Below are positions 8,240-36,533 of a stretch of 36,533 bases of DNA, piece by piece (position 1 is the stretch's first letter; each line of letters begins with the position of its first letter). The position numbers and the translations under genes are program-made. The notes beneath the pieces are model-generated. The model saw nothing but the letters and a program-made list of their open reading frames with translations, was not told the origin of the DNA and ran no database searches. Source of the DNA: Thainema sp. (GTDB lineage Bacteria; Cyanobacteriota; Cyanobacteriia; Phormidesmidales; Phormidesmidaceae); assembly GCA_052168235.1 (NCBI GenBank), contig JBQLZK010000011.1, positions 95,010 through 131,542 on the forward strand, read 5' to 3'.

Positions 8240-8641
8240 ATGCTGCCCCAGGACTATCAAGACCGCTATCAAACGCTCTCCCAGTCCCTACAGACGCTCC
8301 AGAATCAAGTTACTCAGGCCAACCCAGACCAAATGAAACTGCGATCGCAGTTTTTAGAGGCGCAGCAGTGGTTCCAGCAGAAGATTATTGGTCTAGAAGT
8401 TGATGATCAGCTAGAGCCAGCCGACGAGTCTACCGTGCGCTCCCATAACACCGAAATTAATAAGCACCTGCGGCTTTTGGGTATGGATTTGACGTTTTTG
8501 CAGGCGGCTAAGCAGCCCACCACTGCCCAGCAGCGCCAAGCCCAAATCCGCGATCGCATTCAAACGCTCCTGACGTTTTGTCACAATATTTTGAATCCAG
8601 CGGATGCGTCTTCTGATGCGTCTTCTGATGCGTCTTCTTAG
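8240..8641 (+). CDS. patD: PatD-family protein
   Basis: QQWFQQKII...TEINKHLRLLGMDLTFLQAAKQP.TAQQRQ.QI.DRIQTLL.FC. Confidence 0.8.
   Translation: MLPQDYQDRYQTLSQSLQTLQNQVTQANPDQMKLRSQFLEAQQWFQQKIIGLEVDDQLEPADESTVRSHNTEINKHLRLLGMDLTFLQAAKQPTTAQQRQAQIRDRIQTLLTFCHNILNPADASSDASSDASS
8603..8638 (+). repeat. 12-bp tandem repeat x3 (GATGCGTCTTCT, encodes DASS) at the 3' end of patD
   Basis: Three exact copies directly before the TAG stop. Confidence 0.95.
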
Positions 8642-16844: not shown

Positions 16845-17342
16845 ATGAGCAAGGTTCTGGTGCTAAACGCTTCCTACGAACCGTTGAACATTACAAGCTG
16901 GAGACGAGCGGTCGTCTTGTTAATCAAGGGAAAGGCAGAGCAGGTTGAGCATAATGGCAAAGTGATCTACAACCAAATGCCGCTGCCAACGGTCATTCGC
17001 CTCCGTCACTATGTCCGCGTGCCTTATAAGGAAATTCCGCTGACTCGTCGCAATCTGCTCCATCGCGACAACCATACCTGTCAATACTGTGGTGATGCCA
17101 AAGAGGGCCTCACTCTCGACCATGTGATTCCGCGATCGCGGGGCGGCAAGGATACCTGGGAAAATATGGTCGTGGCCTGTGTTCGCTGCAACGTCAAGAA
17201 AGGAAATCGCACGCCTCAAGAAGCCAGTATGCTGCTGGCCTGCCATCCCCGCCGACCTCACAGCAGTCTTTATTTTGAAGTGACAAAACACGTCCGCAGC
17301 GGCGGTCATCAAGAATGGCGCAAGTATGTGATTGGGACTTAA
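16845..17342 (+). CDS. HNH endonuclease (McrA-like)
   Basis: VLVLNASYEPL, RD.HTCQYCG, LTLDHVIPRSRGG, WENMV.ACVRCNVKKGNRTP. Confidence 0.93.
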   Translation: MSKVLVLNASYEPLNITSWRRAVVLLIKGKAEQVEHNGKVIYNQMPLPTVIRLRHYVRVPYKEIPLTRRNLLHRDNHTCQYCGDAKEGLTLDHVIPRSRGGKDTWENMVVACVRCNVKKGNRTPQEASMLLACHPRRPHSSLYFEVTKHVRSGGHQEWRKYVIGT

Positions 17343-17442
17343 TTGAGACTCAACCGGGACTTTAAGAACCAATCGAGTCGATCATGAACTAAGTGCGTGA
17401 TTGGAATCGAAGGGTCGATCAGGTTGCTCATGAAGATGATGC

Positions 17443-23197: not shown

Positions 23198-25840
23198 TTA
23201 AGCCAGCTCTGTCGCTAACTGCTCCCGTGCAGCCTCTAGAGCGGCAGGAAGCTGATCGGGATTGCGCCCCCCCGCTTGGGCCAGGTTGGGACGACCACCA
23301 CCACCACCGCCGCACAGCTTGGCGATACCGCCAATGAACTTACCTGCCTGCAAGCCCTTCTTATTCACTGCCGGACTGAATGCGGCTACCAGGCTCACCT
23401 TACCTGCCTCTGGAATTGAACCCAGGACAACAGCACTATCGCCCAGCTTTTGCGAGAGCCGCTCGGCTGCCGTCTTCAGCGCATCGGCATCGGCATCTAG
23501 TTGAGCGACCAAAACGTTAAATCCGCCGATATTTTCAGCCTTGGCCAAGAGCTGATCCGATTGTGCGATCGCAAGTTCTGATTTGGCGGCATCGAACTGT
23601 TTCTGCGTCGCCTTCAGCTCGTTTTGCAATGCCGTCACGCGAGTTGGGATCTCCTCTGGCTTGACCTTGAAGCGGTCGCTCAGATCGCGCACCACGTCGT
23701 CGCGCACTTTGAGGTAATCCAGCACCGCAGGCCCAGCTACGGCTTCAATCCGGCGAATGCCAGAAGCGACACCCGCCTCGGAGATGATCTTGAACAGACC
23801 AATTTCTGCCGTGTTGGTCACGTGGGTGCCGCCGCACAGCTCCATTGAGACACCGGGGAAGTCAATGACGCGCACTTCTGCGTCATACTTTTCGCCAAAC
23901 ATTGCGATCGCACCTTTGGCTTTGGCTTCCTCCAGCGGCATGACAACAATATCAGCCACGTGACCTTCAGCAATCCAAGTGTTGATTTGGTCTTCAATCT
24001 GCTGCAGCTCGTCAGTAGTGACCGCGCGGGGACAATTGAAGTCAAATCGCAGCCGATCAAAGGCGACCAGCGAACCCGCTTGAGATACGTTGGGATCAAC
24101 AATTTTCTTCAGTGCCGCCTGCAGCAGGTGCGTCGCCGTATGGTTGGCCTGTAGCCGTCGCCGACAGGCCCGGTCAATCTGTGCTGATACCGTATCGCCC
24201 AGATTCAGCGTGCCGCGCTCAATCCGACCGTAGTGGACGAAGATGCCTGACTCTTTCTGGACATCTTCAACCCGCACAACAACGGTGTCACCAGACAGAT
24301 AACCGCGATCGCCAATTTGACCACCGGATTCTGCGTAGAACGGCGTTTGATCCAGGACAACCTGCACCTCATCGCCTGCGCTAGCGGACTCCACCTGCTG
24401 GCCCGCCGCCAGCAGCGCCATGACTTGAGATTGTCCTAAGAAATCCGTATAGCCCAGAAACGCTGTGGCGTGAATATGTTCGGCTAGCTTGTCCAGGCTG
24501 CCCTGAATCGTCAGGTCAATCGTCTCGTGGGCATCCTTCGAGCGCTGCCGCTGCGCCTCCATTTCGGCTTCGAACTCAACCAAGTCAACCGTCAGACCCT
24601 GCTCCTCAGCGATTTCCTGGGTTAGCTCCAGCGGGAAGCCATAGGTGTCATACAGCGTGAAGGCATCAGCACCGGAAATCTGCTGGTCGCCGCGAGCAAT
24701 GATATCGGCCAGCAACTTTTCACCTCGCTCCAGGGTTTCCAGGAAGCGCGACTCTTCCCGCTGCAGTTCGGATTTGATCGCCGATTCGCGATCGCGCACA
24801 GCGGGATAAGCTTCTTCGGAAATTTGAATCGCCGTTTCTACTATTTTGGTAGTGAATTCGCCCTCAATCCCAATCAGCCGCCCGTGACGCACTACCCGCC
24901 GAATCAAACGGCGCAGGATATAACCTCGACCCACGTTCGACGCTGACACGCCATCGGCAATCAGGTGCATCACAGCGCGAACGTGGTCGCCGATTACCTT
25001 CAGCGACACCTTAGTCTTCTCGTCGCTCTTGCTGTATTGAATACCTGCCAGATCTGCCGCCGTGTCGATAATCGGCAGAATCAGGTCGGTTTCGTAGTTA
25101 TTTGGCACCTGCTGTAGGATTTGCGCCATTCGTTCCAGACCCAGACCTGTATCAATATTCTGATTCTTCAGCGGCGTCAGATTGCCCTCAGCATCGCGGT
25201 TGTACTGCATAAAGACGAGGTTGTAATACTCGATAAAACGAGTGTCGTCTTCCAGGTCAATCTTGTCGTCACCCAGTTCGGGATGAAAGTCGTAATACAG
25301 CTCCGAGCATGGCCCGCACGGCCCGGTTGGCCCCGCTGCCCAGAAGTTATCGTCCTTGCCCATGCGCTGGATGCGGTGTTCGGGAATGCCAATCACGTCG
25401 CGCCAGATGGCAAACGCTTCGTCATCTTCTTCATAAACGCTGGGTACAATCCGCTCCGGCGGCAGGTTGAACACGGTGGTAGACAGTTCCCAAGCCCACT
25501 TAATCGCTTGTTCTTTAAAGTAGTCACCAAAGCTAAAGTTGCCCAACATTTCAAAGAAGGTATGGTGTCGCGCGGTGCGGCCCACGTTTTCGATGTCGTT
25601 GGTGCGGATACATTTCTGTGAGGTGGTGGCGCGATCGCACTCGGCCTCGCGCTGTCCCAAAAAGATTGGCTTGAAGGGCAGCATTCCCGCAATCGTCAGC
25701 AGAACGGTGGGGTCTTCTGGAATCAGCGAGGCACTCGGCAAAATTTGGTGTCCCTTCGCTGCATAGAAGTCTAGAAACTGCTGGCGGATTTGAGCGCCAC
25801 TGAGCTTTTTAAGTTTCTGAGCAGAAGGGGAAGTAGCCAT
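23198..25840 (-). CDS. alaS: Alanine--tRNA ligase
   Basis: [50 protein letters not shown]. Confidence 0.99.
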
Positions 25841-26050
25841 GACAGGGTTTCGCGAAAGATAATTACAAGAATTTACAACTCTAGAGTTCTATTGTGACTG
25901 ATGGTGCGGGTTTTCAACAAAAAGATGGATAGATTTGCTCCATGCCAGCCACGGTTTATCCCAAAAGTTAGTGCGATCGCACTTTGTTCGCGCAATGCGA
26001 TCGCGTTTTAATCTGGGTGTAGTTCTTTGTAGCGGATGGAGAACGCTGTT

Positions 26051-26422
26051 ATGGCCAAAATGAATCGGGATGCGAAGCGGGAAGAGCGAATCACGATGGA
26101 GATTGTGGTGGATGCCTATGGCCCAGAGGAGCAGGCGATGGGCTGGTATTACTATTTACAGGATACGATGCAGTGTCCGTTTACGGCGGTTTGTGTGGGT
26201 AAGCGACGCATTTCTCCTTTGAAGGAGGGTGAAACGGTTGAAGTGGTGGGCATGGCACCGGAGGAGGAGTGTGAGCGAAAAATGTTTGTCGAGATTACGT
26301 GGGAAGGTGATGTCTTGGCGGTGCCGCTGATTCAGCTAGAGGCGACCGAGGCAGATGAGGAGACGCAACAAGCGATCGCAGATTGGCATTACTGGGTCGA
26401 TCAGGGCTATGAGTTTGGATAA
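26051..26422 (+). CDS. CcbP-family calcium-binding protein
   Basis: REERITMEIVVDAYGPEEQAMGWYYYLQD...FTA...LAVPL.QLE...TQQAIADWHYWV. Alternative start at 26036. Confidence 0.8.
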   Translation: MAKMNRDAKREERITMEIVVDAYGPEEQAMGWYYYLQDTMQCPFTAVCVGKRRISPLKEGETVEVVGMAPEEECERKMFVEITWEGDVLAVPLIQLEATEADEETQQAIADWHYWVDQGYEFG

Positions 26423-26483
26423 TGCGATAGTGGATAAAGCGACGGTGGATTGCGATCGCAACTTGGAATAAATCGTTTACGGC

Positions 26484-26560
26484 TTTTGTCTCGATTTGAG
26501 ACTACAGTAAACTACATTAAGTCTATTTTTAATACTTGCAAGACTTGACATGAGACAAAA
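26484..26560. repeat. Phased GWC-box element E1
   Basis: GWC cores at 26488, 26500, 26521, 26542, 26554 (spacing 12-21-21-12). Terminal inverted repeat TTTTGTCTC/GAGACAAAA. Confidence 0.85.
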
Positions 26561-26570
26561 TTACGGTTGC

Positions 26571-26598
26571 GTAGGGGCGAATGGCCATTCGCCCCTAC
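26571..26598. repeat. GTAG-type REP (28-bp perfect palindrome)
   Basis: GTAGGGGCGAATGGCCATTCGCCCCTAC. Confidence 0.85.
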
Positions 26599-26769
26599 AG
26601 GATGTTATTCATCTTCGAGATAAACGCGAGCCATTTCTAATGGAATGCCAACGGGAACAGTGATCAGGTTTTGTTGGGTTACGCTAAAGCTAATAAAATC
26701 TGCGAAAGACTATAGCCAAATGTGCATTTATACTAGCTTGCAATTTATTCATTAATCCGGAATATACGT

Positions 26770-27333
26770 ATGAACTACAGTGATGAAGACGACACTCAAT
26801 ATGACCACGAAAAGCTTGATGAAGTAGCTTTGGCGTTAATCTATCTAAATATTCTAGAAACAGGAAACGCATGGAAGGGCGTTCCTCGGTCTGCTACGGA
26901 TCGACTCCACGATAAGGGGTATCTATTTCATCCTGGTAGTAAAGAAAAGTCATTTACATTGACAGATAAGGGCAGAGTTAGAGCAAAGGAGCTATTTCTC
27001 AAGCATTTTACAGATGCGAAAATTAGCCTGACTAATTTCTCTAAAGCTGTAGTTTTTGAACAAAATAATGAAAAAGATTATGTCTTGAATACTTCTCTAT
27101 ATGAGCTAGAACGAGCTTTTGAGAATACAAATTGGAAGACCAAATACTTTTTGAATTTAGAAACAGGTGAGATTGAGGCATCTTTTCCGTCTGCTTTGGT
27201 TGGAGGAATCTGGCTGACGATTCCAGGTTATACATCAGGTAAACAAAGTCGCAGTGAGGAAGAAGCACAAGAAATATTGACTTGGCTGAAGGTAAATCGG
27301 ATTACGCTAGTTGATGAAGATAATCTTGAGTAA
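26770..27333 (+). CDS. DUF6429-like N-terminal domain fused to UPF0158-like C-terminal domain
   Basis: DEVALALIYL...AWKG...DRLHDKGYL..P.SK.KS..LTDKG...AKELF; then LYELERAFE...YFLNLETGEI. AT-rich. Confidence 0.65.
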   Translation: MNYSDEDDTQYDHEKLDEVALALIYLNILETGNAWKGVPRSATDRLHDKGYLFHPGSKEKSFTLTDKGRVRAKELFLKHFTDAKISLTNFSKAVVFEQNNEKDYVLNTSLYELERAFENTNWKTKYFLNLETGEIEASFPSALVGGIWLTIPGYTSGKQSRSEEEAQEILTWLKVNRITLVDEDNLE

Positions 27334-27355
27334 CGGCGCGTTTCCAAGTTAGGGA

Positions 27356-28009
27356 GTGATGGCGATGGTTGTGATTCAGCTTGGACAACTGGATGTTCCA
27401 CCGGGACAGCGCTTGCTGTTGCGAGATGTGAACTGGGCTGAGTTTGAAGCGATTTTGGTCGAACTAGGCAATCATCGCGGCACTCGGATCGCTTATGACA
27501 GGGGTGTGTTAGAAATCATGGCTCCCTTACCTGAACACGAATATTTCAAAGAAACAATTAGTGATGCTGTCAAAGATATCTGTGAAGAACTGGATCTAGA
27601 CTATGAAAGCTACGGCTCAACGACTTGGCGAAAGCAAACAGAGCAAGCGGGGCTAGAGCCAGATAACTGCTTTTATTTTCAAAATGAAGCCCGTGTGCGG
27701 GGCAAGCTCACCTTTGATTTAACCCAAGATCCGCCGCCTGATTTGGCACTGGAAATTGATCTCACTAGTCGATCGCTGAATCGGTTACCGATTTATGTGC
27801 GATTAGGAGTGCCAGAAATTTGGTGCTATGACACAGGTGTTTTGAGCATTTATTTGCTGCAAGGTGATCAATACATTCAGGCTGAGCAAAGCCAAGTTTT
27901 TCCATCACTAAAAATTCAAGAATTGCCGGGGTTGATTGTTGAGTATCGGGGGCAAGGTAGGCTGGCGCTGCGGCGAAGAATTCGTGAATGGGTGAAAGAT
28001 CAGCTTTAG
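27356..28009 (+). CDS. Uma2-family (PD-(D/E)XK) endonuclease
   Basis: RIAYDRGVLEIMAPLPEHE, GSTTW, EPDNCFY, PPPDLALEIDLTS, LGVPEIW. Confidence 0.93.
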   Translation: MMAMVVIQLGQLDVPPGQRLLLRDVNWAEFEAILVELGNHRGTRIAYDRGVLEIMAPLPEHEYFKETISDAVKDICEELDLDYESYGSTTWRKQTEQAGLEPDNCFYFQNEARVRGKLTFDLTQDPPPDLALEIDLTSRSLNRLPIYVRLGVPEIWCYDTGVLSIYLLQGDQYIQAEQSQVFPSLKIQELPGLIVEYRGQGRLALRRRIREWVKDQL

Positions 28010-28135
28010 ATTGGTTGCGGTTGATTATCGCTGAAGCACTTGACTGATAGGTGTTGTATGTTGCTCGACGGAATAAACTGCGATCGCGCAATGTCTACAT
28101 CGGTACAGTTTTGCTGCTACAGGACTACAACAAAT

Positions 28136-28200
28136 TTTTGTCTCAACTTAAGACTTGAGTAAATTGCAGTGAGTCTATTTTTAATATCTATTGGACTCAA
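28136..28200. repeat. Phased GWC-box element E2
   Basis: Cores at 28140, 28152, 28173, 28194. 47/62 identical without gaps to E1 (26484-26545 vs 28136-28197). Confidence 0.85.
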
Positions 28201-28301
28201 GGCAATAAATCGAACTAAAAGCACTGGTTGGGGATAGGGGAGTGTAACGAATTCTGGAAATTTGCTGGGTTTTGCGGCGGGTTGAAAATTAGGTTTGGAT
28301 A

Positions 28302-31300
28302 ATGGCTAGGAAACCTGTTTCAAGATGGGTTGCTAGTCGTAATTTGGGTTGGGTAATGGTGGAGCCAAGTCAGGTTATCCAAGTTGTTTTGAGAGTTGCA
28401 GCAACAGCGGCGGCAATGGGCAAGAAGACGCTGGAGCGTAAGCCGCTAGTTATCAAGGCATTGAAAAAACTAGGGCTAGATCCGGAGCATCCACCGGCTG
28501 AGTTTGGGGCGGTTTATGCGTATGCGCTGGTCGAGTATGCGCTGGTAGAAGAGGAGACGAAGCCAGAGGAATTACTGGAGCTATTTGCGGAACCGGAAAT
28601 CAAGGAAACGTTTCGGCAGGCGTTTGATCGGTGGGATGGAACGTTACTGCAAGGGGAATTGGAGCAGCGGCTGGACTGGCAAGAGTTTGGTAATGAGTGG
28701 AATTTTGTTGGCAATGCGATTCGTGAGCAGAATGTTGATGTGCAGCGAGAAGTAGCTGTATTCTTTGCGGTGTTTTTGGATGTGGTGCGACGAAGCCAGA
28801 CACCGAAGGAGCAGTTGCAGACGGTGTTGCTGACGGATGTGCAGCAGGATTTGAAGCAGGTGAGGGCGCAGCTAGAGACTGTCTCAAGCTTGGAATCGTT
28901 GCCGAGACAGTTGATGGATGCGGTGGGTGAGCTACGGGCTTTGTTGCCAGGGGTAGCTCAGGATGCAGGACAGAGAGAGGATGGGCTGGCCAGCCAGTTA
29001 AGAGACTGGTTTGAGGTGTTGGGCTATGGCTGGGAAAGTCATGACGTAGCTGAGGATCGATATTTTGAGTGGATGATTACGATTCCGGTGCGGCGGAAGC
29101 GGTATGACCGGGTGTTGGTACGGGGTGTGACGGGAGAAGCAGGACTGCCGGATTTGCGGGCGTTGCAGGAAGCGGTCGAGCAGCAGGATGCGGATGAGGG
29201 CTGGCTGGTGGCGACGATGCGGGTGAGTAGCGGTGTGCGTCAGGCGGTGCGGGATGAAGACGAGTATGAGTTGATTTCTTGCTACACGCTGGATGAGCTG
29301 CTGGATGAGGATGCGGATTTTGGTCAGTATTTGGAGTGGTTGGAAGCGGAAATTAAGCAGCGAGAGATTAATCAGGACTATATTCCGTTGGGGTGTCGGA
29401 AGGATGAGATTGATCCGAGGTCGCAGCAGAAGATTGGGATTAGTCATTACGGAGAAGAGGAAGGCTGGATTGAGGGGTATGTGGATCAGTGGTTGGCTGA
29501 TCCGTCGAAGGAGCATTTGTCGGTTTTAGGGGAGTTTGGCACGGGGAAAACGTGGTTTGCGCTGCATTATGCTTGGGTGGCGTTGCAGAAGTATAAGGAG
29601 GCGAAGCGGCGGGGGGTGGAGCGTCCGCGATTGCCGCTGGTAATTCCGCTGCGGGACTATGCGAAGGCGGTGAGCGTAGAATCGCTGTTTTCGGAGTTTT
29701 TCTTTCGCAAGCATGAGATTCCGCTGCCGGGGTATAGCGCGTTTGAGCAGTTGAATCGGATGGGGAAGCTGCTGCTGATCTTTGATGGGTTTGATGAGAT
29801 GGCGGCGCGGATTAATCGGCAAGCAATGATCGACAACTTTTGGGAACTGGCGAAGGTGGTGGTGCCGGGGGCGAAGGCAATTTTGACCTGTCGGACGGAG
29901 CATTTTCCGGATGCGATTGAGGGACGGAAGCTGCTGAATGCGGAGCTAAAGGCTTCGACTTCTAACCTGACGGGGGAACCGCCGCAGTTTGAGGTGCTGG
30001 AGCTGGCAAAGTTTAGTGATGAGCAGATTGCAGAACTGCTGGGGCGGAAGGCGCAGGAACAGACGGTGCAGGAAGTAATCGGGAATCCGCAACTGTTGGA
30101 TTTGGCGCGGCGTCCGGTGATGGTGGAGCTAATTTTGGAGGCGTTGCCTGCGATTGAGGCGGGGAAGCCTGTGGATATGGCGCGGGTGTACTTGTATGCG
30201 GTGACGCGGAAGATGAAGCGGGATATTCGGAGTGAGCGGACGTTTACGTCACTGGCGGATAAGCTTTATTTTCTGTGTGAGCTGGCATGGGAGATGCTGG
30301 CAACGGATCAGATGAGTTTGAATTACCGGGCATTTCCAGAGCGGCTGAAGCTGATGTTTGCGGAGCGGGTGCAGGAGGAGAAGGAACTGGACTATTGGCG
30401 CTACGACATGATGGGGCAGACGATGCTGATCCGCAATTCGGAGGGAGATTATAGTCCGGCGCATCGGTCGCTGCTGGAGTTTTTTGTGGCGTACAAGATT
30501 GTGGCGTCGCTGGGGGTATTGGCGGAGGATTTTACGGAGGTGGCGCGGCAGCAGTCGCATTTGATTGCGGGAGCAGCGGCGCAGGACTATACGTGGCATG
30601 GCTATTTTCGGCGGGTTTGTGATAGGGAAGGAACGCCGGAGGCGATGGCTCCACTGGGGCAGTTTGCGACGATGGAGTTTGATGGGTTGCTGCCGTTGTT
30701 GCGGGAGGCGAAGCTGGCAAAGGCGGTGCTGGATTTGGCGTATCCAATGGTAGATCGGGAGACGATGCGGGAGCGGTTGTTGCCGCTGTTGCAGGCGACA
30801 CGGGAGCGAACGTTGGAGCAAGTGGGGTATTTGGGTGGGAATGTGGCACAGTTGATGCTAGCGAGATCACCCCATGCGTTGGTGGATAGTGATTTGAGTG
30901 GAACAAAGTTATGTGGAGTGGATTTTACGAAGGCGTATTTGCGACGGGTGAATCTGCGGGATGCTCAATTGCCTGAATCGATTTTCTCCAAAGTGTTAGG
31001 TAGTGTGTACTCAGTAGCGATTAGTCCTGATGGTAGATATTTGGCTGTTGGAGATAGTAAGGAAACCGTACAGATTTGGGATGCACTAACAGGACAAGTG
31101 ACGTGGTTCTGTGTGGGCCATCTGGATATGGTTAGATCGGTAGCATTTAGCCCTGATGGCGAACAACTAGCTTCTGGTAGCAATGATCAAACAATCAAGC
31201 TGTGGTCAGTGAAGACTGGTGAATGCCTACAAACTCTAGACAAGCACCTGAATTCAGTCTGGTCAGTAATCTTTAGTCCTGATGGCAAACAGTTAGCTTC

Positions 31301-32861
31301 TGGCAGTTATGACCGAACGATCAAACTATGGTCTGTTGAAACGGGTGAATGTCTACAGACTCTAGAAGGACATTCGTTTTCAGTTTTATCAGTAGCTTTT
31401 AGTCCTGATGGTAAACAGTTAGCTTCTGGCAGTTATGACCGAACGATCAAACTATGGTCTGTTGAAACGGGTGAATGTCTACAGACTCTAGAAGGACATT
31501 CAAACGCGGTTTTATCAGTAGCTTTTAGTCCTGATGGTAAACAGTTAGCTTCTGGTAGTGATGATAAGACAATCAAGCTGTGGTCAGTTAAGACTGGTGA
31601 ATGTCTACAGACCTTGGAGGGGCATTCAAATCTAGTCAGGTCAGTAACGTTTAGTTCAGACGGTAAACAATTAGCTTCCGGTAGTTACGACCAAATGATT
31701 AAGTTGTGGTCAGTTAAGACTGGTGAGTGTCTACAGACCTTAGAGGGGCACTTTTATTCAGTTCGATCAGTAATATTTAGCCTAGATGATCAACAGATCC
31801 TCTCTGGCGGTTCTGATAATACAGTGAAATGGTGGTCAGTACAAACGAGCGAATGCCTTCACACTTTAACAGGTTATTCCAATTTAATTGGAACCGTAGC
31901 ATTTAGCCCGGATAGCCATTTACTCGCATCTTCTGGTTATGACTGGACGGTCAAATTATGGTCAGTTAGTTCTGGTGAGTGTCTACGGACTCTAGAAGGA
32001 CATTCAAATCCAGTTGGAACAGTAGCATTTAGCCCAAACAGTGAACGATTAGCTTCTGGTAGTGATGATCAAACAATCAAGCTGTGGTCAGTTAAGACTG
32101 GTGAGTGTCTACAGACTCTAGAAGGACACTCAAATCACGTATGGTCGATAATGTTTAGCCCTAATGGTAAATACCTGGTTTCCGGTGGCTACGACAAAAC
32201 GATAAAGCTATGGTCAGTTGAGACTGGTAAGTGTCTACAAACCTTAAGAGGACATTCAGATTGGGTCTCTTCAGTGGCGTTTAGCCCTGACGGCCAACAA
32301 CTAGCTTCTGGCAGTTTTGATCAAACAATCAAGCTGTGGTCAGCAAAGACAGGTGAATGTGTAAATACTTGGGATGATCATACGGCTCGAATTCGTTCAA
32401 TAGTATTTAGCCCTAATGGTAAATACTTAGTTTCTGGTAGTGATGATAAAACGATAAAACTATGGTCAGTTGAGACTGGTAAGTGTCTACAAACTTTCAA
32501 AGGACATTTGAATTCAGTTTTATCAGTGAGCATGAATCCGAATAATAATCAGATAGCTTCCGGTAGTAATGATCAAACAGTAAAACTTTGGAGAATTGGC
32601 ACAGAAGAGTCTACACAGACTATAGAGGGTCATTCAGGTTTGGTTCGATCAGTTGATTTCAACAAAGATGGCCATCAGCTAGCTTCTGGCAGCAATGACA
32701 ACAAAATCATGTTGTGGTCAGTCGCGACAGGTAAGTGCTTACAAGTATTAGATGATCGAGTTTGCGCTAGCGCAAATATAACTAGTATAAACGAACTAAC
32801 CTTAGGGCAGAAGGCAACATTAAAGCTATTAGGCGCTATTGACGAAAATGAGTTTGATTAA
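28302..32861 (+). CDS. NLR-like STAND protein: helical N-domain, REase-like domain, NACHT, short pentapeptide stretch, 14 WD40 repeats
   Basis: Walker A GEFGTGKT, Walker B LLLIFDGFDEM, ILTCRTEHF, HRSLLEFF; 14 WD repeats counted. True start may be 28356. Confidence 0.9.
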   Translation: MARKPVSRWVASRNLGWVMVEPSQVIQVVLRVAATAAAMGKKTLERKPLVIKALKKLGLDPEHPPAEFGAVYAYALVEYALVEEETKPEELLELFAEPEIKETFRQAFDRWDGTLLQGELEQRLDWQEFGNEWNFVGNAIREQNVDVQREVAVFFAVFLDVVRRSQTPKEQLQTVLLTDVQQDLKQVRAQLETVSSLESLPRQLMDAVGELRALLPGVAQDAGQREDGLASQLRDWFEVLGYGWESHDVAEDRYFEWMITIPVRRKRYDRVLVRGVTGEAGLPDLRALQEAVEQQDADEGWLVATMRVSSGVRQAVRDEDEYELISCYTLDELLDEDADFGQYLEWLEAEIKQREINQDYIPLGCRKDEIDPRSQQKIGISHYGEEEGWIEGYVDQWLADPSKEHLSVLGEFGTGKTWFALHYAWVALQKYKEAKRRGVERPRLPLVIPLRDYAKAVSVESLFSEFFFRKHEIPLPGYSAFEQLNRMGKLLLIFDGFDEMAARINRQAMIDNFWELAKVVVPGAKAILTCRTEHFPDAIEGRKLLNAELKASTSNLTGEPPQFEVLELAKFSDEQIAELLGRKAQEQTVQEVIGNPQLLDLARRPVMVELILEALPAIEAGKPVDMARVYLYAVTRKMKRDIRSERTFTSLADKLYFLCELAWEMLATDQMSLNYRAFPERLKLMFAERVQEEKELDYWRYDMMGQTMLIRNSEGDYSPAHRSLLEFFVAYKIVASLGVLAEDFTEVARQQSHLIAGAAAQDYTWHGYFRRVCDREGTPEAMAPLGQFATMEFDGLLPLLREAKLAKAVLDLAYPMVDRETMRERLLPLLQATRERTLEQVGYLGGNVAQLMLARSPHALVDSDLSGTKLCGVDFTKAYLRRVNLRDAQLPESIFSKVLGSVYSVAISPDGRYLAVGDSKETVQIWDALTGQVTWFCVGHLDMVRSVAFSPDGEQLASGSNDQTIKLWSVKTGECLQTLDKHLNSVWSVIFSPDGKQLASGSYDRTIKLWSVETGECLQTLEGHSFSVLSVAFSPDGKQLASGSYDRTIKLWSVETGECLQTLEGHSNAVLSVAFSPDGKQLASGSDDKTIKLWSVKTGECLQTLEGHSNLVRSVTFSSDGKQLASGSYDQMIKLWSVKTGECLQTLEGHFYSVRSVIFSLDDQQILSGGSDNTVKWWSVQTSECLHTLTGYSNLIGTVAFSPDSHLLASSGYDWTVKLWSVSSGECLRTLEGHSNPVGTVAFSPNSERLASGSDDQTIKLWSVKTGECLQTLEGHSNHVWSIMFSPNGKYLVSGGYDKTIKLWSVETGKCLQTLRGHSDWVSSVAFSPDGQQLASGSFDQTIKLWSAKTGECVNTWDDHTARIRSIVFSPNGKYLVSGSDDKTIKLWSVETGKCLQTFKGHLNSVLSVSMNPNNNQIASGSNDQTVKLWRIGTEESTQTIEGHSGLVRSVDFNKDGHQLASGSNDNKIMLWSVATGKCLQVLDDRVCASANITSINELTLGQKATLKLLGAIDENEFD

Positions 32862-33066
32862 TTGCGGGTCAGGCAAATATTCAAAGGCCTCCAACTCCTT
32901 TGAATTAGGGCTTTTAGCTATCACGCAATTTTGCTGGACTAAAATTGGACTAAAATTTTCGGACTATTTTGAGGCGAATTTCAGTCCGATCGCAACTTAG
33001 ATTAGCCCATGCCATAGCTTACTCCATGAGCCAAAAACGCGATCGCACCTCGCACCATCAAGTTTT

Positions 33067-33141
33067 ATATTCTTGTAACGAGACTCAATCTAACTTATTT
33101 GAGACCCTGCTCAATACCCGTTAGTCTCAATCCGAGACTAA
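33067..33141. repeat. Phased GWC-box element E3
   Basis: Cores at 33070 (degenerate TTC), 33082, 33103, 33124, 33136. Confidence 0.8.
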
Positions 33142-33238
33142 ATTTACAACACAAGTTTTGCAGAAGTTGAAGTACGTAAGTCGGGATACAGATGACCACG
33201 TACACTTGTGATCCCGGCATCAACCTACATCAGAGATT

Positions 33239-33985
33239 ATGTTTTTGAATTTAAAGCGATCGCACTTTTTAAGAGGCGTCATCATCAGTGGATTGCTCAT
33301 CATACTTCTGTATGCCGACCCAGCATTTGCTAATACCTGGCCCCCCATCGCAATTCAGTTAATCTATACTCCCCTTACTGTTGCGATCTACACCCTCGGG
33401 ATTGGATTAATCGCAATCGTAATTATCGAAAGCATTATTCTCATGCGGCGAGAGCATGTATCCCTACTATCAGCACTTAGACACACCATCGGAGCAAATC
33501 TGCTATCTACCGCACTTGGATTTCTGTTAACCATAGGATTTGGCATGCCACCCCTGACATTAATCTCCTGGGGCATTTTTTATGTTTGCATGGTGTTCAT
33601 GTCCATCCAAAGCATACCGTTGTTAAACCTAAAGCGATTCCCGTTGTGGCTGAGTTGGGGATTGCTTTGGCTCATCATATTAGTGGGCATCATTTATCTT
33701 TTTATTGCTATCTCTGAGATAAACCCAGCTACTACCAGCGGCAAACCCTTTCCAGATTGGGATGTGCCGTTCTACATCAACATTATCCAATTACTCCTTA
33801 CTGTTGGATTTATGGCTATCGGCTTCTTTGTAAGCTTCTGTTCTGAGGGATTTTATCTCAGCAAAATGCTCTCCAAACCAACACCGTCAGTTCTACAAAC
33901 AGTGTGGATCATGAATCTACGCTCATACGTCTACGTTGCCTTACCGCTAACCGTATTTCTGATGAAGTATCACAAAGCCATTTAG
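33239..33985 (+). CDS. Multi-pass membrane hypothetical protein
   Basis: Signal-like PAFA, then about 7 hydrophobic helices with IIES...ANLLST and SEG...MNLRSY internal repeat. Confidence 0.75.
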   Translation: MFLNLKRSHFLRGVIISGLLIILLYADPAFANTWPPIAIQLIYTPLTVAIYTLGIGLIAIVIIESIILMRREHVSLLSALRHTIGANLLSTALGFLLTIGFGMPPLTLISWGIFYVCMVFMSIQSIPLLNLKRFPLWLSWGLLWLIILVGIIYLFIAISEINPATTSGKPFPDWDVPFYINIIQLLLTVGFMAIGFFVSFCSEGFYLSKMLSKPTPSVLQTVWIMNLRSYVYVALPLTVFLMKYHKAI

Positions 33986-34043
33986 AGTTTTGACGATGAC
34001 AGCCCCACTTTAATTTCCCATCCACCCATCCACCCATCTACCC

Positions 34044-34670
34044 CTATCCCCCATACGGCCTAAACGTCCAATTCACCCTCACCCCCACATCCTTCACCGT
34101 CTTCATCACCGCATGCTGATACGCTTCCTGACATCCCGGCTCCATCACCACCAGCGACCCATGCGTCAACTCATAGCTCATAGGCTTCTCCTTACCCAAC
34201 CGCGATCGCAACTTAAACACCCGCGTCGCCCCCAAACTCACCGATGAGATCGCAGGTTTCACCCCCAAACTCGGCTCATCATCCGAGTGATAGCCCATGT
34301 GGTCACGACCCGACCGATACTGATTGCCAAACGCAACCTGATACTTGTACCCCGTAAATTCCTCCAACCGATCGCGTAGCTCCCGCAAAAATGGAGCCTC
34401 ATCCCACGACCGTGCCTCTACCTCCACCGACCCGCTATAGAGATACCGATAATCCGCCGAATCGCCAAACATAATCTCCAAACGCGGCAGCGGAATCCAG
34501 CGATTAAACATCCGAGGAATCCAGCGATTAAACATCCGAATTTGATTTTGCTGCCAGTCCAACTCCAAACTCTGTCGCAGCAACAGATCCGCCTCCGCCA
34601 CACTCAAAAAATCAGGATAAAACCGCACTAGCGGCACCTCTCCATCCAAAGCCAATAAATTGAGCTGCAT
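34044..34670 (-). CDS. AlkB-like 2OG-Fe(II) dioxygenase
   Basis: NQYRSG.DHMGYHSDDE, ISSVSLGATRVF, L.HGSL.VM, YQHAV.K, RVNWTFR. Confidence 0.92.
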   Translation of the reverse strand: MQLNLLALDGEVPLVRFYPDFLSVAEADLLLRQSLELDWQQNQIRMFNRWIPRMFNRWIPLPRLEIMFGDSADYRYLYSGSVEVEARSWDEAPFLRELRDRLEEFTGYKYQVAFGNQYRSGRDHMGYHSDDEPSLGVKPAISSVSLGATRVFKLRSRLGKEKPMSYELTHGSLVVMEPGCQEAYQHAVMKTVKDVGVRVNWTFRPYGG

Positions 34671-34745
34671 GTCCTTACCCTAACCAAACCAATACAGAAA
34701 TACGCGCCATAATCCGATTTCTAATTCCACCCAAATCCTAAATAT

Positions 34746-34820
34746 TTAATCTTGCATTGAGACTCGTAATCCCAAAGTCTGGACTCAAAAAAGCATTTAA
34801 TAGACTCATGGTAAGACGGA
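34746..34820. repeat. Phased GWC-box element E4
   Basis: Cores at 34749 (degenerate ATC), 34761, 34782, 34803, 34815. Confidence 0.8.
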
Positions 34821-35106
34821 TATCGCCTTCAGACCGTCTTTCGGAACTGCGGATACAAACCCATTCTCAGCAATCGACACTCAGAAACTAACACCCAGTA
34901 CCTATTACCCAACAAGAACGGGTTTCTCAAAACAGCAACCTAACTACACTCCTCCACCTCTCCGTTTCGCAGCCCACCCATCAAATCGCCCATATTGAGT
35001 AGTATTCATCCAGTTCTTTTGGAAAAGACCGTTTTGCACAGGTAGTTCACGATGTAAGCAATCAACGCTTACATCCAAAGCCCCCTAAACAATAAGGAAT
35101 AAAATC

Positions 35107-35391
35107 ATGCAATCAACTGCCCCCAGCCGTGGCCCCGTCGCTTGCCGTAGCCTACCTGTTCTACGTCGCAATGATCGGCAACGCACGCCCAACGAAGATG
35201 TCAAAGTGCTACAGCGCTATCTGAATTACTATGGTTTTCCTCTCACAGTCGATGGTTACTTTGGGCCTAAAACCGAAGACGCCGTCAAAGGATTCCAAGA
35301 ACGAGTTAATGACCACGATCTATCGTTTCTAGTAGATGGCATCGTTGGGCCTCGAACCTGGGGCGCGCTAGGCGCTTGCGTCGGTGCATAG
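35107..35391 (+). CDS. Small stand-alone peptidoglycan-binding (PG_binding_1) protein, paralog 1
   Basis: DVKVLQRYLN..GF.L.VDGYFGPKTE.AVK.FQ...VDGIVGP.TW.AL; AAGGA RBS. Confidence 0.88.
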   Translation: MQSTAPSRGPVACRSLPVLRRNDRQRTPNEDVKVLQRYLNYYGFPLTVDGYFGPKTEDAVKGFQERVNDHDLSFLVDGIVGPRTWGALGACVGA

Positions 35392-35449
35392 CTAGCGCAT
35401 CATCACCGATAAACAGTTATCGTCTCAATCTAATTTTCAACTAATCTCC

Positions 35450-35512
35450 AAAAACCGGGGTTCTTTAGCGACTTGAGCACACCACTCAAATCAACAGAGG
35501 ACCTCGGTTTTT
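35450..35512. repeat. REP-like inverted pair (AAACCGGGGTTCT family)
   Basis: AAAAACCGGGGTTCT...AGAGGACCTCGGTTTTT. Confidence 0.65.
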
Positions 35513-35551
35513 TACTGTGCCCCAATTTTGCCTTCTGAATCTTCTTGCAAT

Positions 35552-35626
35552 TTAGTCCAAAAACAAGTCTCATAAATATTTTTACAGGACTCATATAGAG
35601 GCGATCTAGTCTCAAATTGAAACAAA
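35552..35626. repeat. Phased GWC-box element E5
   Basis: Cores at 35555, 35567, 35588, 35609 and 35621 (degenerate AAC). Confidence 0.8.
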
Positions 35627-35958
35627 GCGTTCAACTTTCTGAGTGCTGTTAACTAACGCTCTAGAACTGTTCCTAAACTCTATCTCGATAACTCGACTGA
35701 TGGATTCATAGGAAACTGCGATCGCAGTTTCTTCTTATGAGCACCTACACCTCAAACTCCAGTGAATGGCACAGAAAAATCTAAAAAATCAGCTTATCTA
35801 CAAGTATTTATCGATCAATTTCGTAAGCAATAAAACAGATTGCCCGATGCGAGTAATATTCAATCAACCTTCAGGAAAAAGCAGTTTGGCACAGGTAGTT
35901 CATCATGTAAGCAATCAACGCTTACATCCAAAGCCCCCTAATCAAAAGGAATCAAACA

Positions 35959-36258
35959 ATGCAATCAACTGCCCCTACTCAACCTCCTATCTCTTGCCAC
36001 CGCCTTCCTATTCTGCGTCGCAACGATCGCCAAATCCGGCCAGAAGACATTGTAGAATTTCTACAGCGCCGCTTAAATTTCTCTGGCTTTAATCTACGTG
36101 TAGATGGTTTCTTCGGCCCCAAGACCGAAGCCGCCGTTCGAGAATTTCAAGCTAGAGGAAATGATCACGATCCAAGCGTTCTAGTCGATGGAATTGTTGG
36201 CCCTCAAACCTGGAACGCCTTAGGAGTTTGTGAAATCTACACCGAAGGCTGCTGCTAA
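35959..36258 (+). CDS. Small stand-alone peptidoglycan-binding (PG_binding_1) protein, paralog 2
   Basis: Same motifs as 35107..35391; both begin MQSTAP. Confidence 0.88.
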   Translation: MQSTAPTQPPISCHRLPILRRNDRQIRPEDIVEFLQRRLNFSGFNLRVDGFFGPKTEAAVREFQARGNDHDPSVLVDGIVGPQTWNALGVCEIYTEGCC

Positions 36259-36284
36259 AAATATTGAACAACTGAATAACTCAC

Positions 36285-36348
36285 GAAACCGGGTTTTCTA
36301 TGTTAGCTAAATCATTTTGCTTAACACCAGTAGAAGAAACCCGGTTTC
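36285..36348. repeat. REP-like inverted pair (GAAACCGGGTTT family)
   Basis: GAAACCGGGTTTTCTA...AGAAGAAACCCGGTTTC. Confidence 0.7.
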
Positions 36349-36376
36349 TAACTAGAAACTCGCACAAATTATCGCT

Positions 36377-36440
36377 TCAAGTCTTGCAAGTATCACCGCA
36401 AGACTCAAAATAAGTCAAATGAGTCTCGTGTCGATATTTG
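36377..36440. repeat. Phased GWC-box element E6
   Basis: Cores at 36381, 36402, 36423; outer boxes degenerate. 36377-36393 is the exact reverse complement of E1 26532-26548. Confidence 0.75.
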
Positions 36441-36533
36441 ATACTCAATCAGCCAAACAATTCTGCCAAACAATAGTGTGATGGGAACCTCGATTAATTG
36501 AGGTTTTGGGACAAGGGTGTCTCATTTGAGACC

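Follow-up and report, generated by a model that had tools for sequence, protein, structure and literature searches.

The window analysed here is a stretch of 36,533 nucleotides from the cyanobacterium Thainema sp. (assembly GCA_052168235.1). It forms the final 36.5 kb of contig C11 of that assembly, which holds 7,542,204 bases in 205 contigs and will be called G000. The window carries an island of mostly accessory genes, and six elements, E1 to E6, lie between these genes, all of them intergenic. Each element is an array of short boxes, where a box is called from a GWC core and at least six of nine matches to TGAGWCTCA. A further feature, a composite site made of a palindromic core and tandem direct repeats, lies between E2 and E3 (32854–32972) and was overlooked in the first-pass annotation of this DNA. 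The arrays and the two conserved parts of the composite are as follows.

26484–26560, unstranded: array E1, between ccbP and DUF6429; five boxes centred at 26489, 26501, 26522, 26543 (weak) and 26555
28136–28200, unstranded: array E2, between Uma2 and the NACHT-WD40 gene; boxes centred at 28141, 28153, 28174 and 28195
32854–32884, plus strand: core palindrome with 12-nt arms and a 7-nt spacer, consensus TTGAnTAGTTGC-N7-GCAAATAnTCAA
32935–32972, plus strand: tandem direct repeats, two copies of TGGACTAAAAT and a third GGACT, about 50 nt past the core
33067–33142, unstranded: array E3, upstream of a gene for a 248-aa membrane-like protein; boxes centred at 33083, 33104, 33125 and 33137
34746–34820, unstranded: array E4, between the divergent alkB-like and PG_binding genes; boxes centred at 34762, 34783, 34804 and 34816
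35552–35615, unstranded: array E5, past the terminator hairpin of the first PG_binding gene; boxes centred at 35556, 35568, 35589 and 35610
36377–36430, unstranded: array E6, partial, past the terminator hairpin of the second PG_binding gene; boxes centred at 36382, 36403 and 36424, with one at 36415 out of register

Anatomy of the arrays and of the composite site

The six elements described in the first-pass annotation are all found in the sequence where it had placed them, and three boxes exactly 21 bp apart are present in every one. The full series of offsets that it proposed (0, 12, 33, 54 and 66) is complete in E1, with a weak fourth box, whereas E2 to E5 hold four of the five boxes, and the remaining box of E6 is out of register with its three 21-bp boxes. 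The boxes of E3 and E4 run in mirror order. Ungapped alignment of E1 with E2 again gives 47 matches over 62 positions, and the inverted 9-nt ends of E1 (TTTTGTCTC and GAGACAAAA) and the exact inverted 17-mer common to E1 and E6 (26532 and 36377) have been reproduced as well.

Across the whole of G000, the strict four-box layout occurs four times, every time inside the window, against about 0.002 occurrences expected by arithmetic from the 25,335 boxes in the genome. The top scores of a relaxed scan, 24 to 30, all belong to E1–E5, while the maximum in the block-shuffled genome is 23. Three boxes at 21-bp spacing with a score of at least 18 give six matches in the genome, which are exactly E1–E6. 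Control spacings from 18 to 24 bp give 0–6 matches each, mostly scoring 17–18, with one unexplained score of 23 at a spacing of 18. A fixed pattern of the boxes matches only E1–E5 in the whole genome. No other place in the assembly has this layout. E6 is also detected (E 4.8e-7) by R1, a sequence-only covariance model of the element that was built without it; E1, which belonged to the training set, is matched at E 3e-11. Chance is excluded as the source of the arrays. Isolated pairs or triplets of boxes 11–12 bp apart occur outside the island at 17337–17348 and 8609–8633, the box at 17348 being a perfect 9/9, and none of them has the 21-bp layout.

The array family was gathered from 21 loci, the window and 20 loci of relatives, and comprises 63 elements. 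In an ungapped alignment of 85 columns, 42 of these elements, drawn from 20 genomes, have conserved boxes and unrelated spacers. Their consensus, GTCTCA-nnn-TGAGACT ... AGACTC ... TGAGTCTCA-nnAnn-AGACT, is composed of two copies of GTCTC-N5-GAGAC (a 15-bp inverted repeat) whose centres are 54 bp apart, with one AGWCT box midway, and the array is dyad-symmetric save for the central base. Because the two inverted repeats are 54 bp apart and the single box is midway, the boxes all lie on one face of the helix. The same conservation is seen between G000 and G001, a sister species of the same genus. Their coding DNA is ~89% identical, and the orthologues of E3–E6 retain boxes and spacing, while the spacers have drifted. 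The multi-site protein-binding structure postulated in the first-pass annotation is supported by both comparisons.

The single-stranded form of the arrays gives little indication of structure. As attC-type hairpins they fold weakly, with a minimum free energy (DNA parameters) of -3 to -10 kcal/mol per 81 nt in the six elements with printed values and a mean z of -1.6; boxes 1 and 5 pair in 11 of the 63 elements and boxes 2 and 4 in 14. The attC motif has RYYYAAC and GTTRRRY ends with paired L boxes. These R'' and R' ends are absent from E1–E6 and from the 42-element consensus, whose ends are GTCTC and GAGAC, in line with the earlier remark that the elements are not attC. An Rfam scan of 25800–36533 at E up to 1 returned only a sub-threshold match to a plant miRNA precursor (E 0.0046), which is the terminator hairpin at 35449–35513 and not an element. 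A known RNA family was rejected, as no Rfam model reaches its gathering score and the composite is without covariation. Scans with promoter and terminator consensus sequences performed no better than on shuffles. A dispersed repeat of the miniature inverted-repeat transposable element (MITE) or repetitive extragenic palindrome (REP) type was also rejected, as copies occur at only one locus per genome and their spacers are unrelated. The conserved boxes, unrelated spacers, weak folding, lack of an Rfam family and background-like placement among genes (described below) suggest that the elements are duplex protein-binding arrays, and they are not RNAs, attC-like hairpins, MITEs or promoter-tied sequences.

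The composite was found through a k-mer census of the loci, in which the non-HIP1 word TGGACTAAA stood out. It has a fixed length of ~110 nt and consists of the palindrome, ~47 nt of unconserved sequence and then the tandem TGGACTAAAAT-TGGACTAAATTTT, the direct-repeat unit being GGACTAAA. In the window, the core matches 21 of 22 arm positions, and the NACHT-WD40 gene has its stop codon within the left arm. R2, a model of the composite, matches the window at 32854–32961 (E 3.9e-21), and the central box of E3 is 143 nt past the end of this match. The 12-7-12 palindrome is present in 20 of 20 aligned copies, with conserved arms and a free spacer that differs even between G000 and G001, and the site thus has the two inverted arms around a 6–8-nt centre that define dif-type sites. 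RNAalifold on the composite returned only the palindrome, with a covariation term of 0.02.

Distribution among related genomes and position on the chromosome

A gapped-motif scan of related genomes, as proposed in the first-pass annotation, was run with R1 and the fixed pattern and places the copies at one locus per genome. The fixed pattern matches 95 of the 173 genomes of the family and 17 of its 19 genera, and the matches mostly cluster on one contig. Since a control with the reversed pattern also yields scattered single matches, only clustered matches count. R1 was searched against seven whole genomes and gives 34 matches with E below 1e-3, all within ~21 kb of the composite (six in G000, four in G001, three in G005, four in G014, eight in G042, four in G119 and five in G131).

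The architecture of the arrays varies between genera: the strict pattern is found in only 2 of 22 genomes of genus g4, yet in G021, a member of this genus, looser-spaced arrays lie between the composite and an adjacent small helix-turn-helix (HTH) gene. Weaker AGACT/AAGAC arrays have been found in other families (G039, G032, G030 and G299), 0.2–2.3 kb from the composite on its GGACT side. At the composite locus of G250, a small genome, no box arrays were seen. The G250 composite is directly followed by a putative tRNA-like sequence (locus L061, C1 at about 2343700–2343995). Across the 21 loci, the GGACT side of the core holds 45 of the 63 arrays, 42 of them within 5 kb. The nearest array is 122–218 nt from the composite in eight loci, and many arrays lie 1–15 kb from the core. 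On the GGACT side the central box is A or T in a ratio of 33:12, compared to 9:9 on the opposite side.

The arrays have no evident preference for a kind of gene. All but one of the 63 lie outside open reading frames (ORFs) of at least 100 aa, and the shares that fall in tandem, divergent and convergent intergenic regions are those of the background. In particular, 11 of 60 classified arrays lie between convergent genes, compared to 36 of 189 background intergenic regions. With no depletion between convergent genes, an operator with promoter-tied placement was rejected, and the operator or silencer role that the first-pass annotation offered as its alternative is weakened, although it is retained below as a rival reading. 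The neighbours are a heterogeneous mix of housekeeping and accessory genes, and clustering of the ORFs of the 21 loci found no family in more than six loci. An AraC regulator, present at 6 of the 20 relatives' loci, was dropped as a linked gene because it reflects synteny within one genus. Also, runs of three to five arrays occur without an intervening ORF of at least 70 aa.

The composite is present in 52 of 151 genomes of the class, with one copy in 46 and two in six. R2 locates it in 20 of the 22 array-bearing loci of relatives, missing it in L015 and L026, and gives one strong match per chromosome in G005, G042, G119, G131, G032 and G039. A weak match in G031 (E 0.006, 22% from dnaN) was treated as noise. 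Six loci with a second copy were examined (G000 C87, G262 C34, G206 C111, G131 C2, G303 C137 and G208 C487). In the first three, the second copy is 190–320 nt from a small parA on a short plasmid-like contig, and that of G131 sits on a 196-kb second replicon. The second copy of G000, its only other strong one (C87, 15774–15876), is 190 nt downstream of the small parA and a ribbon-helix-helix-like partner gene. C87, which is 22.8 kb long, encodes a TacA/GNAT toxin-antitoxin pair as well and is probably a plasmid. The R2 counts and the second-copy loci together give one copy per replicon, as is the case for dif-type sites. R1 has no match in the 93 kb of the second-copy loci, so the arrays accompany only the chromosomal copy, and they therefore probably serve a terminus-specific task and not the recombination chemistry.

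The position of the composite was measured from dnaN, which was chosen as origin proxy before any position was examined; oriC of Synechococcus elongatus lies at dnaN. In seven of seven closed chromosomes, the composite is 37.6–49.9% of the circle away from dnaN (45.7% in G005, 49.9% in G042, 46.5% in G131, 46.2% in G119, 48.4% in G039, 47.7% in G032 and 37.6% in G250). Under uniform placement, the probability that all seven are at 37.6% or more is ~6e-5 by arithmetic. We read the composite locus as terminus-linked, with caveats from dnaA, draft genomes and skew that are taken up below.

Candidate proteins and possible roles of the locus

A small HTH gene was first noticed beside an array in four loci, and arrays lie directly upstream of it in at least four. 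The protein has 119–139 aa, is labelled "resolvase" in NCBI records and shows sub-threshold matches to HTH_17 and HTH_7. It is always single copy, is found in 98 of 151 class genomes and is 50–69% identical across families. Its gene is present in 51 of 52 composite-positive genomes compared to 47 of 99 composite-negative ones, and the class sample gave no case of it in families f4, f15, f20 and f22, where the composite is absent too. In 14 of the 51 composite-positive genomes that have it, the gene is within 10 kb of the composite, where ~0.2 cases are expected by arithmetic. These linked cases span families f1, f10, f16, f17 and f26, and three more family loci bring the total to 17. The order from core to arrays to small HTH gene, in one direction, is seen in 12 of the 17. 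The distance to the composite can be as short as 0.16 kb (G197), 0.4 kb (G212) or 0.5 kb (G039 and G248). The interval is filled by box arrays with 21- and 12-bp spacings in G021, G248, G232, G212, G033 and G039, and in a seventh that was read, the 158 nt of G197, no array was seen.

In its AlphaFold2 (AF2) model (pLDDT 71), the small protein combines an HTH with a loop or wing, and its C-terminus forms a long helix. Its weak structural neighbours include MerR-type regulators, BldC, RacA, pSK1 Par and excisionases, and an HTH of the MerR/Xis-like kind is plausible from this model. Foldseek gave nothing at E 0.001 or better, and the best VIA-align Z was 4.7. RTP is not among the fold matches, which does not count against a relation to it.

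The candidate recombinase came to light in G032, which has the composite and no integrase at Pfam level, and encodes instead a ~400-aa protein with RHAWA...GHS...Y motifs. Orthologues of ~390 aa are found in 110 of 151 class genomes, including 49 of 52 composite-positive ones, with 60–69% identity between families and 46–69% among the stronger matches. The G000 orthologue is an intact 390-aa ORF (C26, 55658–56809; L089, 1507–2679). The family is sub-threshold in Pfam (Phage_integrase, E 1e-4), and by fold it best matches XerA (E 1.8e-4), lambda integrase, the Tn1549 integrase and Cre. In the AF2 model (pLDDT 70), the N-terminus forms a three-strand sheet and a helix with pLDDT 80–90, and appears to resemble an arm-binding domain. 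The recombinase gene is unlinked to the composite site.

Starting from the observed anatomy and conservation, the clustering at one locus, the distance from dnaN, the core copies on plasmids and the gene linkage, we consider the chances about even that the small HTH protein has its binding sites in the arrays and that these surround a dif-like site and mark the terminus. The six elements would be double-stranded binding arrays for a sequence-specific protein. They belong to a conserved chromosomal module composed, in order, of a palindromic recombinase-type core, GGACTAAA direct repeats, one to several arrays and, ancestrally, the small HTH gene. The module is present once per chromosome, opposite dnaN, at what is taken to be the replication terminus. 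The core may be the place where the divergent ~390-aa tyrosine recombinase resolves replicon dimers, as an analogue of dif. The small HTH protein would bind the boxes, and the arrays would give the chromosomal core a terminus-specific nucleoprotein coat. This coat could act in fork arrest (like RTP/Ter), in organising or anchoring the terminus (like MatP/matS or RacA/ram) or in controlling recombination. The accessory genes that separate the arrays would then be passengers in a variable region near the terminus and not cassettes mobilised by the arrays.

Several points weigh against this proposal. All binding and recombination is inferred from sequence and models, and the counts exaggerate the support because the genomes are related and do not represent independent observations. 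The arrays are dyad-symmetric, and a polar fork barrier is therefore not evident. No structural match of the small protein reaches a Z of 5 or an E as low as 0.5, and the Arm-DNA-bind_2 match of the recombinase has an E of only 0.025. The small HTH gene of G000 itself is on C45 (46405–46739) with no array upstream, and both proteins also occur in families without a detected composite (f2, f5, f6 and f21). The terminus call depends on dnaN as origin proxy, and where dnaA is apart from dnaN, the composite is nearer dnaA (5.5% in G032, 11.8% in G039, 11.5% in G250 and 20.4% in G119). In the draft G030, the composite is 238 kb from dnaN on one contig, and the distance in the draft G299 amounts to 32.6% of the circle, provided that contig C5 represents the whole replicon. 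Finally, GC skew, gene-strand bias and skewed 6–8-mers within 200 kb on either side of the G005 site show no switch beyond that at control split points.

By comparison with known systems, the composite resembles dif/Xer and cer/psi sites in having inverted arms around a short spacer once per replicon, in its location, which on chromosomes is opposite the origin marker and on plasmid-like contigs is next to par genes, in having its recombinase encoded elsewhere and in being flanked on one side by putative protein-binding sequences. It differs in its 12-nt arms and 7-nt spacer, with no likeness noted to the 28-bp dif. The ~390-aa candidate recombinase with its extra N-terminal domain and sub-threshold Pfam match differs from Xer, and the arrays accompany the chromosomal copy and not the plasmid copies. 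In an earlier systematic survey, dif could not be predicted for any of the five Cyanobacteria included (PMC3025954), and a 2019 genome paper gives no predicted dif site in cyanobacteria (PMC6416890). Full-text literature searches, which do not extend to subscription journals, returned no later description of a cyanobacterial dif site. The composite is likely to serve in chromosome resolution, as a type of site that has yet to be found in this phylum.

The arrays share with the RTP/Ter system of B. subtilis dyad-symmetric pairs of inverted repeats ~50–60 bp apart, in several copies at the terminus (the presumed one in our case), and a ~120-aa winged-HTH protein with a C-terminal helix whose gene lies beside the sites in many genomes. 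On the other hand, the fold searches gave no match to RTP, the arrays have no evident polarity, their boxes are unrelated in sequence, and in G000 the small HTH gene is not adjacent to the arrays. MatP/matS and RacA/ram likewise have short palindromic boxes in one chromosomal region bound by a small dimeric protein, as is proposed for the arrays, and RacA and pSK1 Par are among the weak fold neighbours of the small protein. Those systems use dozens of single sites over hundreds of kb, whereas here 3–8 composite arrays with a fixed 12/21/21/12-bp phasing lie within ~20 kb.

A wider proposal joins all four components, the arrays, the core with its GGACT repeats, the small HTH protein and the ~390-aa recombinase, into one cyanobacterial terminus system. 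In it, a heterobivalent housekeeping recombinase similar to lambda Int would act on a dif analogue, which would be wrapped in sites for a new fork-arresting or terminus-anchoring protein. We put this forward tentatively, as somewhat short of an even chance. Resolution sites and terminus-binding arrays are known as kinds of system. No description was found of the recombinase family, the small protein, the sequence of the site or the array of five phased boxes. If the proposal is true, the combination would be one not known from any phylum. The chromosome-dimer resolution site of cyanobacteria has been reported as unfound, and this locus offers a concrete candidate for it. For the question of how the often polyploid cyanobacteria finish replication and separate their chromosomes, the locus supplies a testable set: a site, its phased box arrays, and candidates for the recombinase and for the protein that binds the site. 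The locus would also give a sequence landmark for the terminus in draft genomes and would explain the accessory-gene patch without invoking a new mobile-element mechanism.

Alternatively, the boxes could be arm-type or accessory sites that act directly in recombination at the core, forming an intasome like those of lambda attP or cer/psi. The recombinase N-domain, the small Xis-like protein or both would bind them and give resolution selectivity or pairing of sister sites. The core, direct repeats and arrays standing together on one side, the eight loci in which an array is close to the composite, the N-terminal fold of the recombinase with its weak Arm-DNA-bind_2 match, and the weak resemblance of the small protein to excisionases all agree with this, as does the GACT core common to the GGACT and AGACT boxes in the same orientation. 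The lambda attP layout is similar: a core-type site, tandem direct repeats, arrays for a small Xis-like HTH and a recombinase with a probable arm-binding N-domain. However, the site described here is a single-copy housekeeping site on the chromosome with no prophage or att pair, and its arrays extend over kilobases, those at 1–15 kb being too far from the core for a single intasome. The plasmid-type core copies lack arrays, although plasmids are the best-known users of accessory-sequence filters, and no similarity has been shown between the core arms and the boxes. We regard this alternative as unlikely.

A role of the arrays as operators for the neighbouring, mostly accessory units, through the small HTH protein or another regulator and with an incidental position at the terminus, is in our view rather more doubtful. 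Each transcription unit of the window island has one array alongside, the intergenic location is nearly universal, and the arrays directly upstream of the small HTH gene are reminiscent of autoregulation. Against this stand the background frequency of convergent placement, the runs of arrays without an ORF between them and the lack of a common function among the neighbouring genes, and a regulon limited to one locus per genome yet conserved across families would be unusual.

The main model of the first-pass annotation was that the elements are attachment sites at which cassettes are built or shuffled, as in integrons or dif modules. Gene content between arrays does differ among relatives, and the arrays may be rearrangement boundaries. 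Compared to G001, G000 has two extra units (E1 with DUF6429/Uma2, and E2 with the NACHT-WD40 gene), the second PG_binding gene occupies a different inter-array slot in G001, and in genus g17 the same gene modules occur in differing orders with arrays at their borders. Repeated short elements separating variable gene units are likewise a feature of integron attI/attC and of Acinetobacter pdif (PMC6449649), and the composite, an inverted core with two direct repeats, is similar in layout to attI and to the internal resolution site (IRS) of Tn4430. A recombinase-type site does exist in the same locus. It is a different element (32854–32884) from E1–E6, with one such site per chromosome, and the arrays are not copies of it: they have no R/L box consensus, no hairpin folding and no crossover-type core common to themselves or shared with the palindrome. 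The homology break between G000 and G001 is at 32919, just past the core, and not in an array. No integrase was seen among 13 window proteins (ORFs before 17443 were outside the scan, and the contig ends in an insertion sequence), and no Phage_integrase among 121 neighbour proteins at the 20 other loci. Metagenome contigs from four DNA runs, all only 150–390 nt long, hold no alternative junctions, which says little about the model; loose contig ends at 28138 and 32888 are diverged spacer and not new junctions. The suggested significance of the place next to alaS falls away too, as the sister species has the same array elsewhere and the alaS flank differs from 25928 onward. Intergenic regions are natural borders of rearrangement in any case. 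This model is the least supported and very improbable.

Other features of the window

The gene order given for the island in the first-pass annotation agrees with the Pfam assignments, which are listed here in order along the window, followed by the repeat at its end.

alaS, minus strand; then ccbP; then DUF6429 and Uma2
NACHT-WD40 gene, with NNH5, NA-iREase1, NACHT, pentapeptide and WD40 domains
gene for the 248-aa membrane-like protein, between E3 and the alkB-like gene, with no Pfam family match
alkB-like gene (2OG-FeII_Oxy_2), minus strand
two PG_binding_1 genes, after the alkB-like gene
36484–36533, plus strand: terminal repeat of a multicopy insertion sequence (IS), outside the element family

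The contig stops at 36533 because of the IS terminal repeat. This ~50-nt repeat also ends at least 13 more contigs (C4, C31, C35, C49, C58, C84, C97, C108, C111, C118, C148, C160 and C167). Its presence at 14 or more contig ends indicates a recently active IS that fragments the assembly and interrupts the island just past E6. A GTCTC-N4-GAGAC motif at the final bases of the window was considered as a seventh element and ruled out, as it is part of this repeat. The word GCGATCGC is abundant in the window.

A perfect GC-rich palindromic hairpin just past E1 (26575–26602) also occurs at many other places in G000, as well as in several relatives. It has no relation to the box arrays and is a REP-like repeat with dispersed copies. 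The alkB-like gene contains an exact 24-nt tandem duplication (34492–34539), and one metagenome contig is without one copy. The two small PG_binding_1 genes are paralogues with 70% identity, and their common 88-nt leader (35016–35103 and 35869–35956) is 84% identical. Each of them is followed in the window by a long terminator hairpin and then an array, while in G001 one gene lies next to the other and the second is followed by both arrays. The WD40 part of the NACHT protein is encoded by a 126-nt tandem repeat of at least 12 units (31011–32744). One metagenome contig skips 630 nt, corresponding to five WD40 units, and the repeat number therefore varies between strains.

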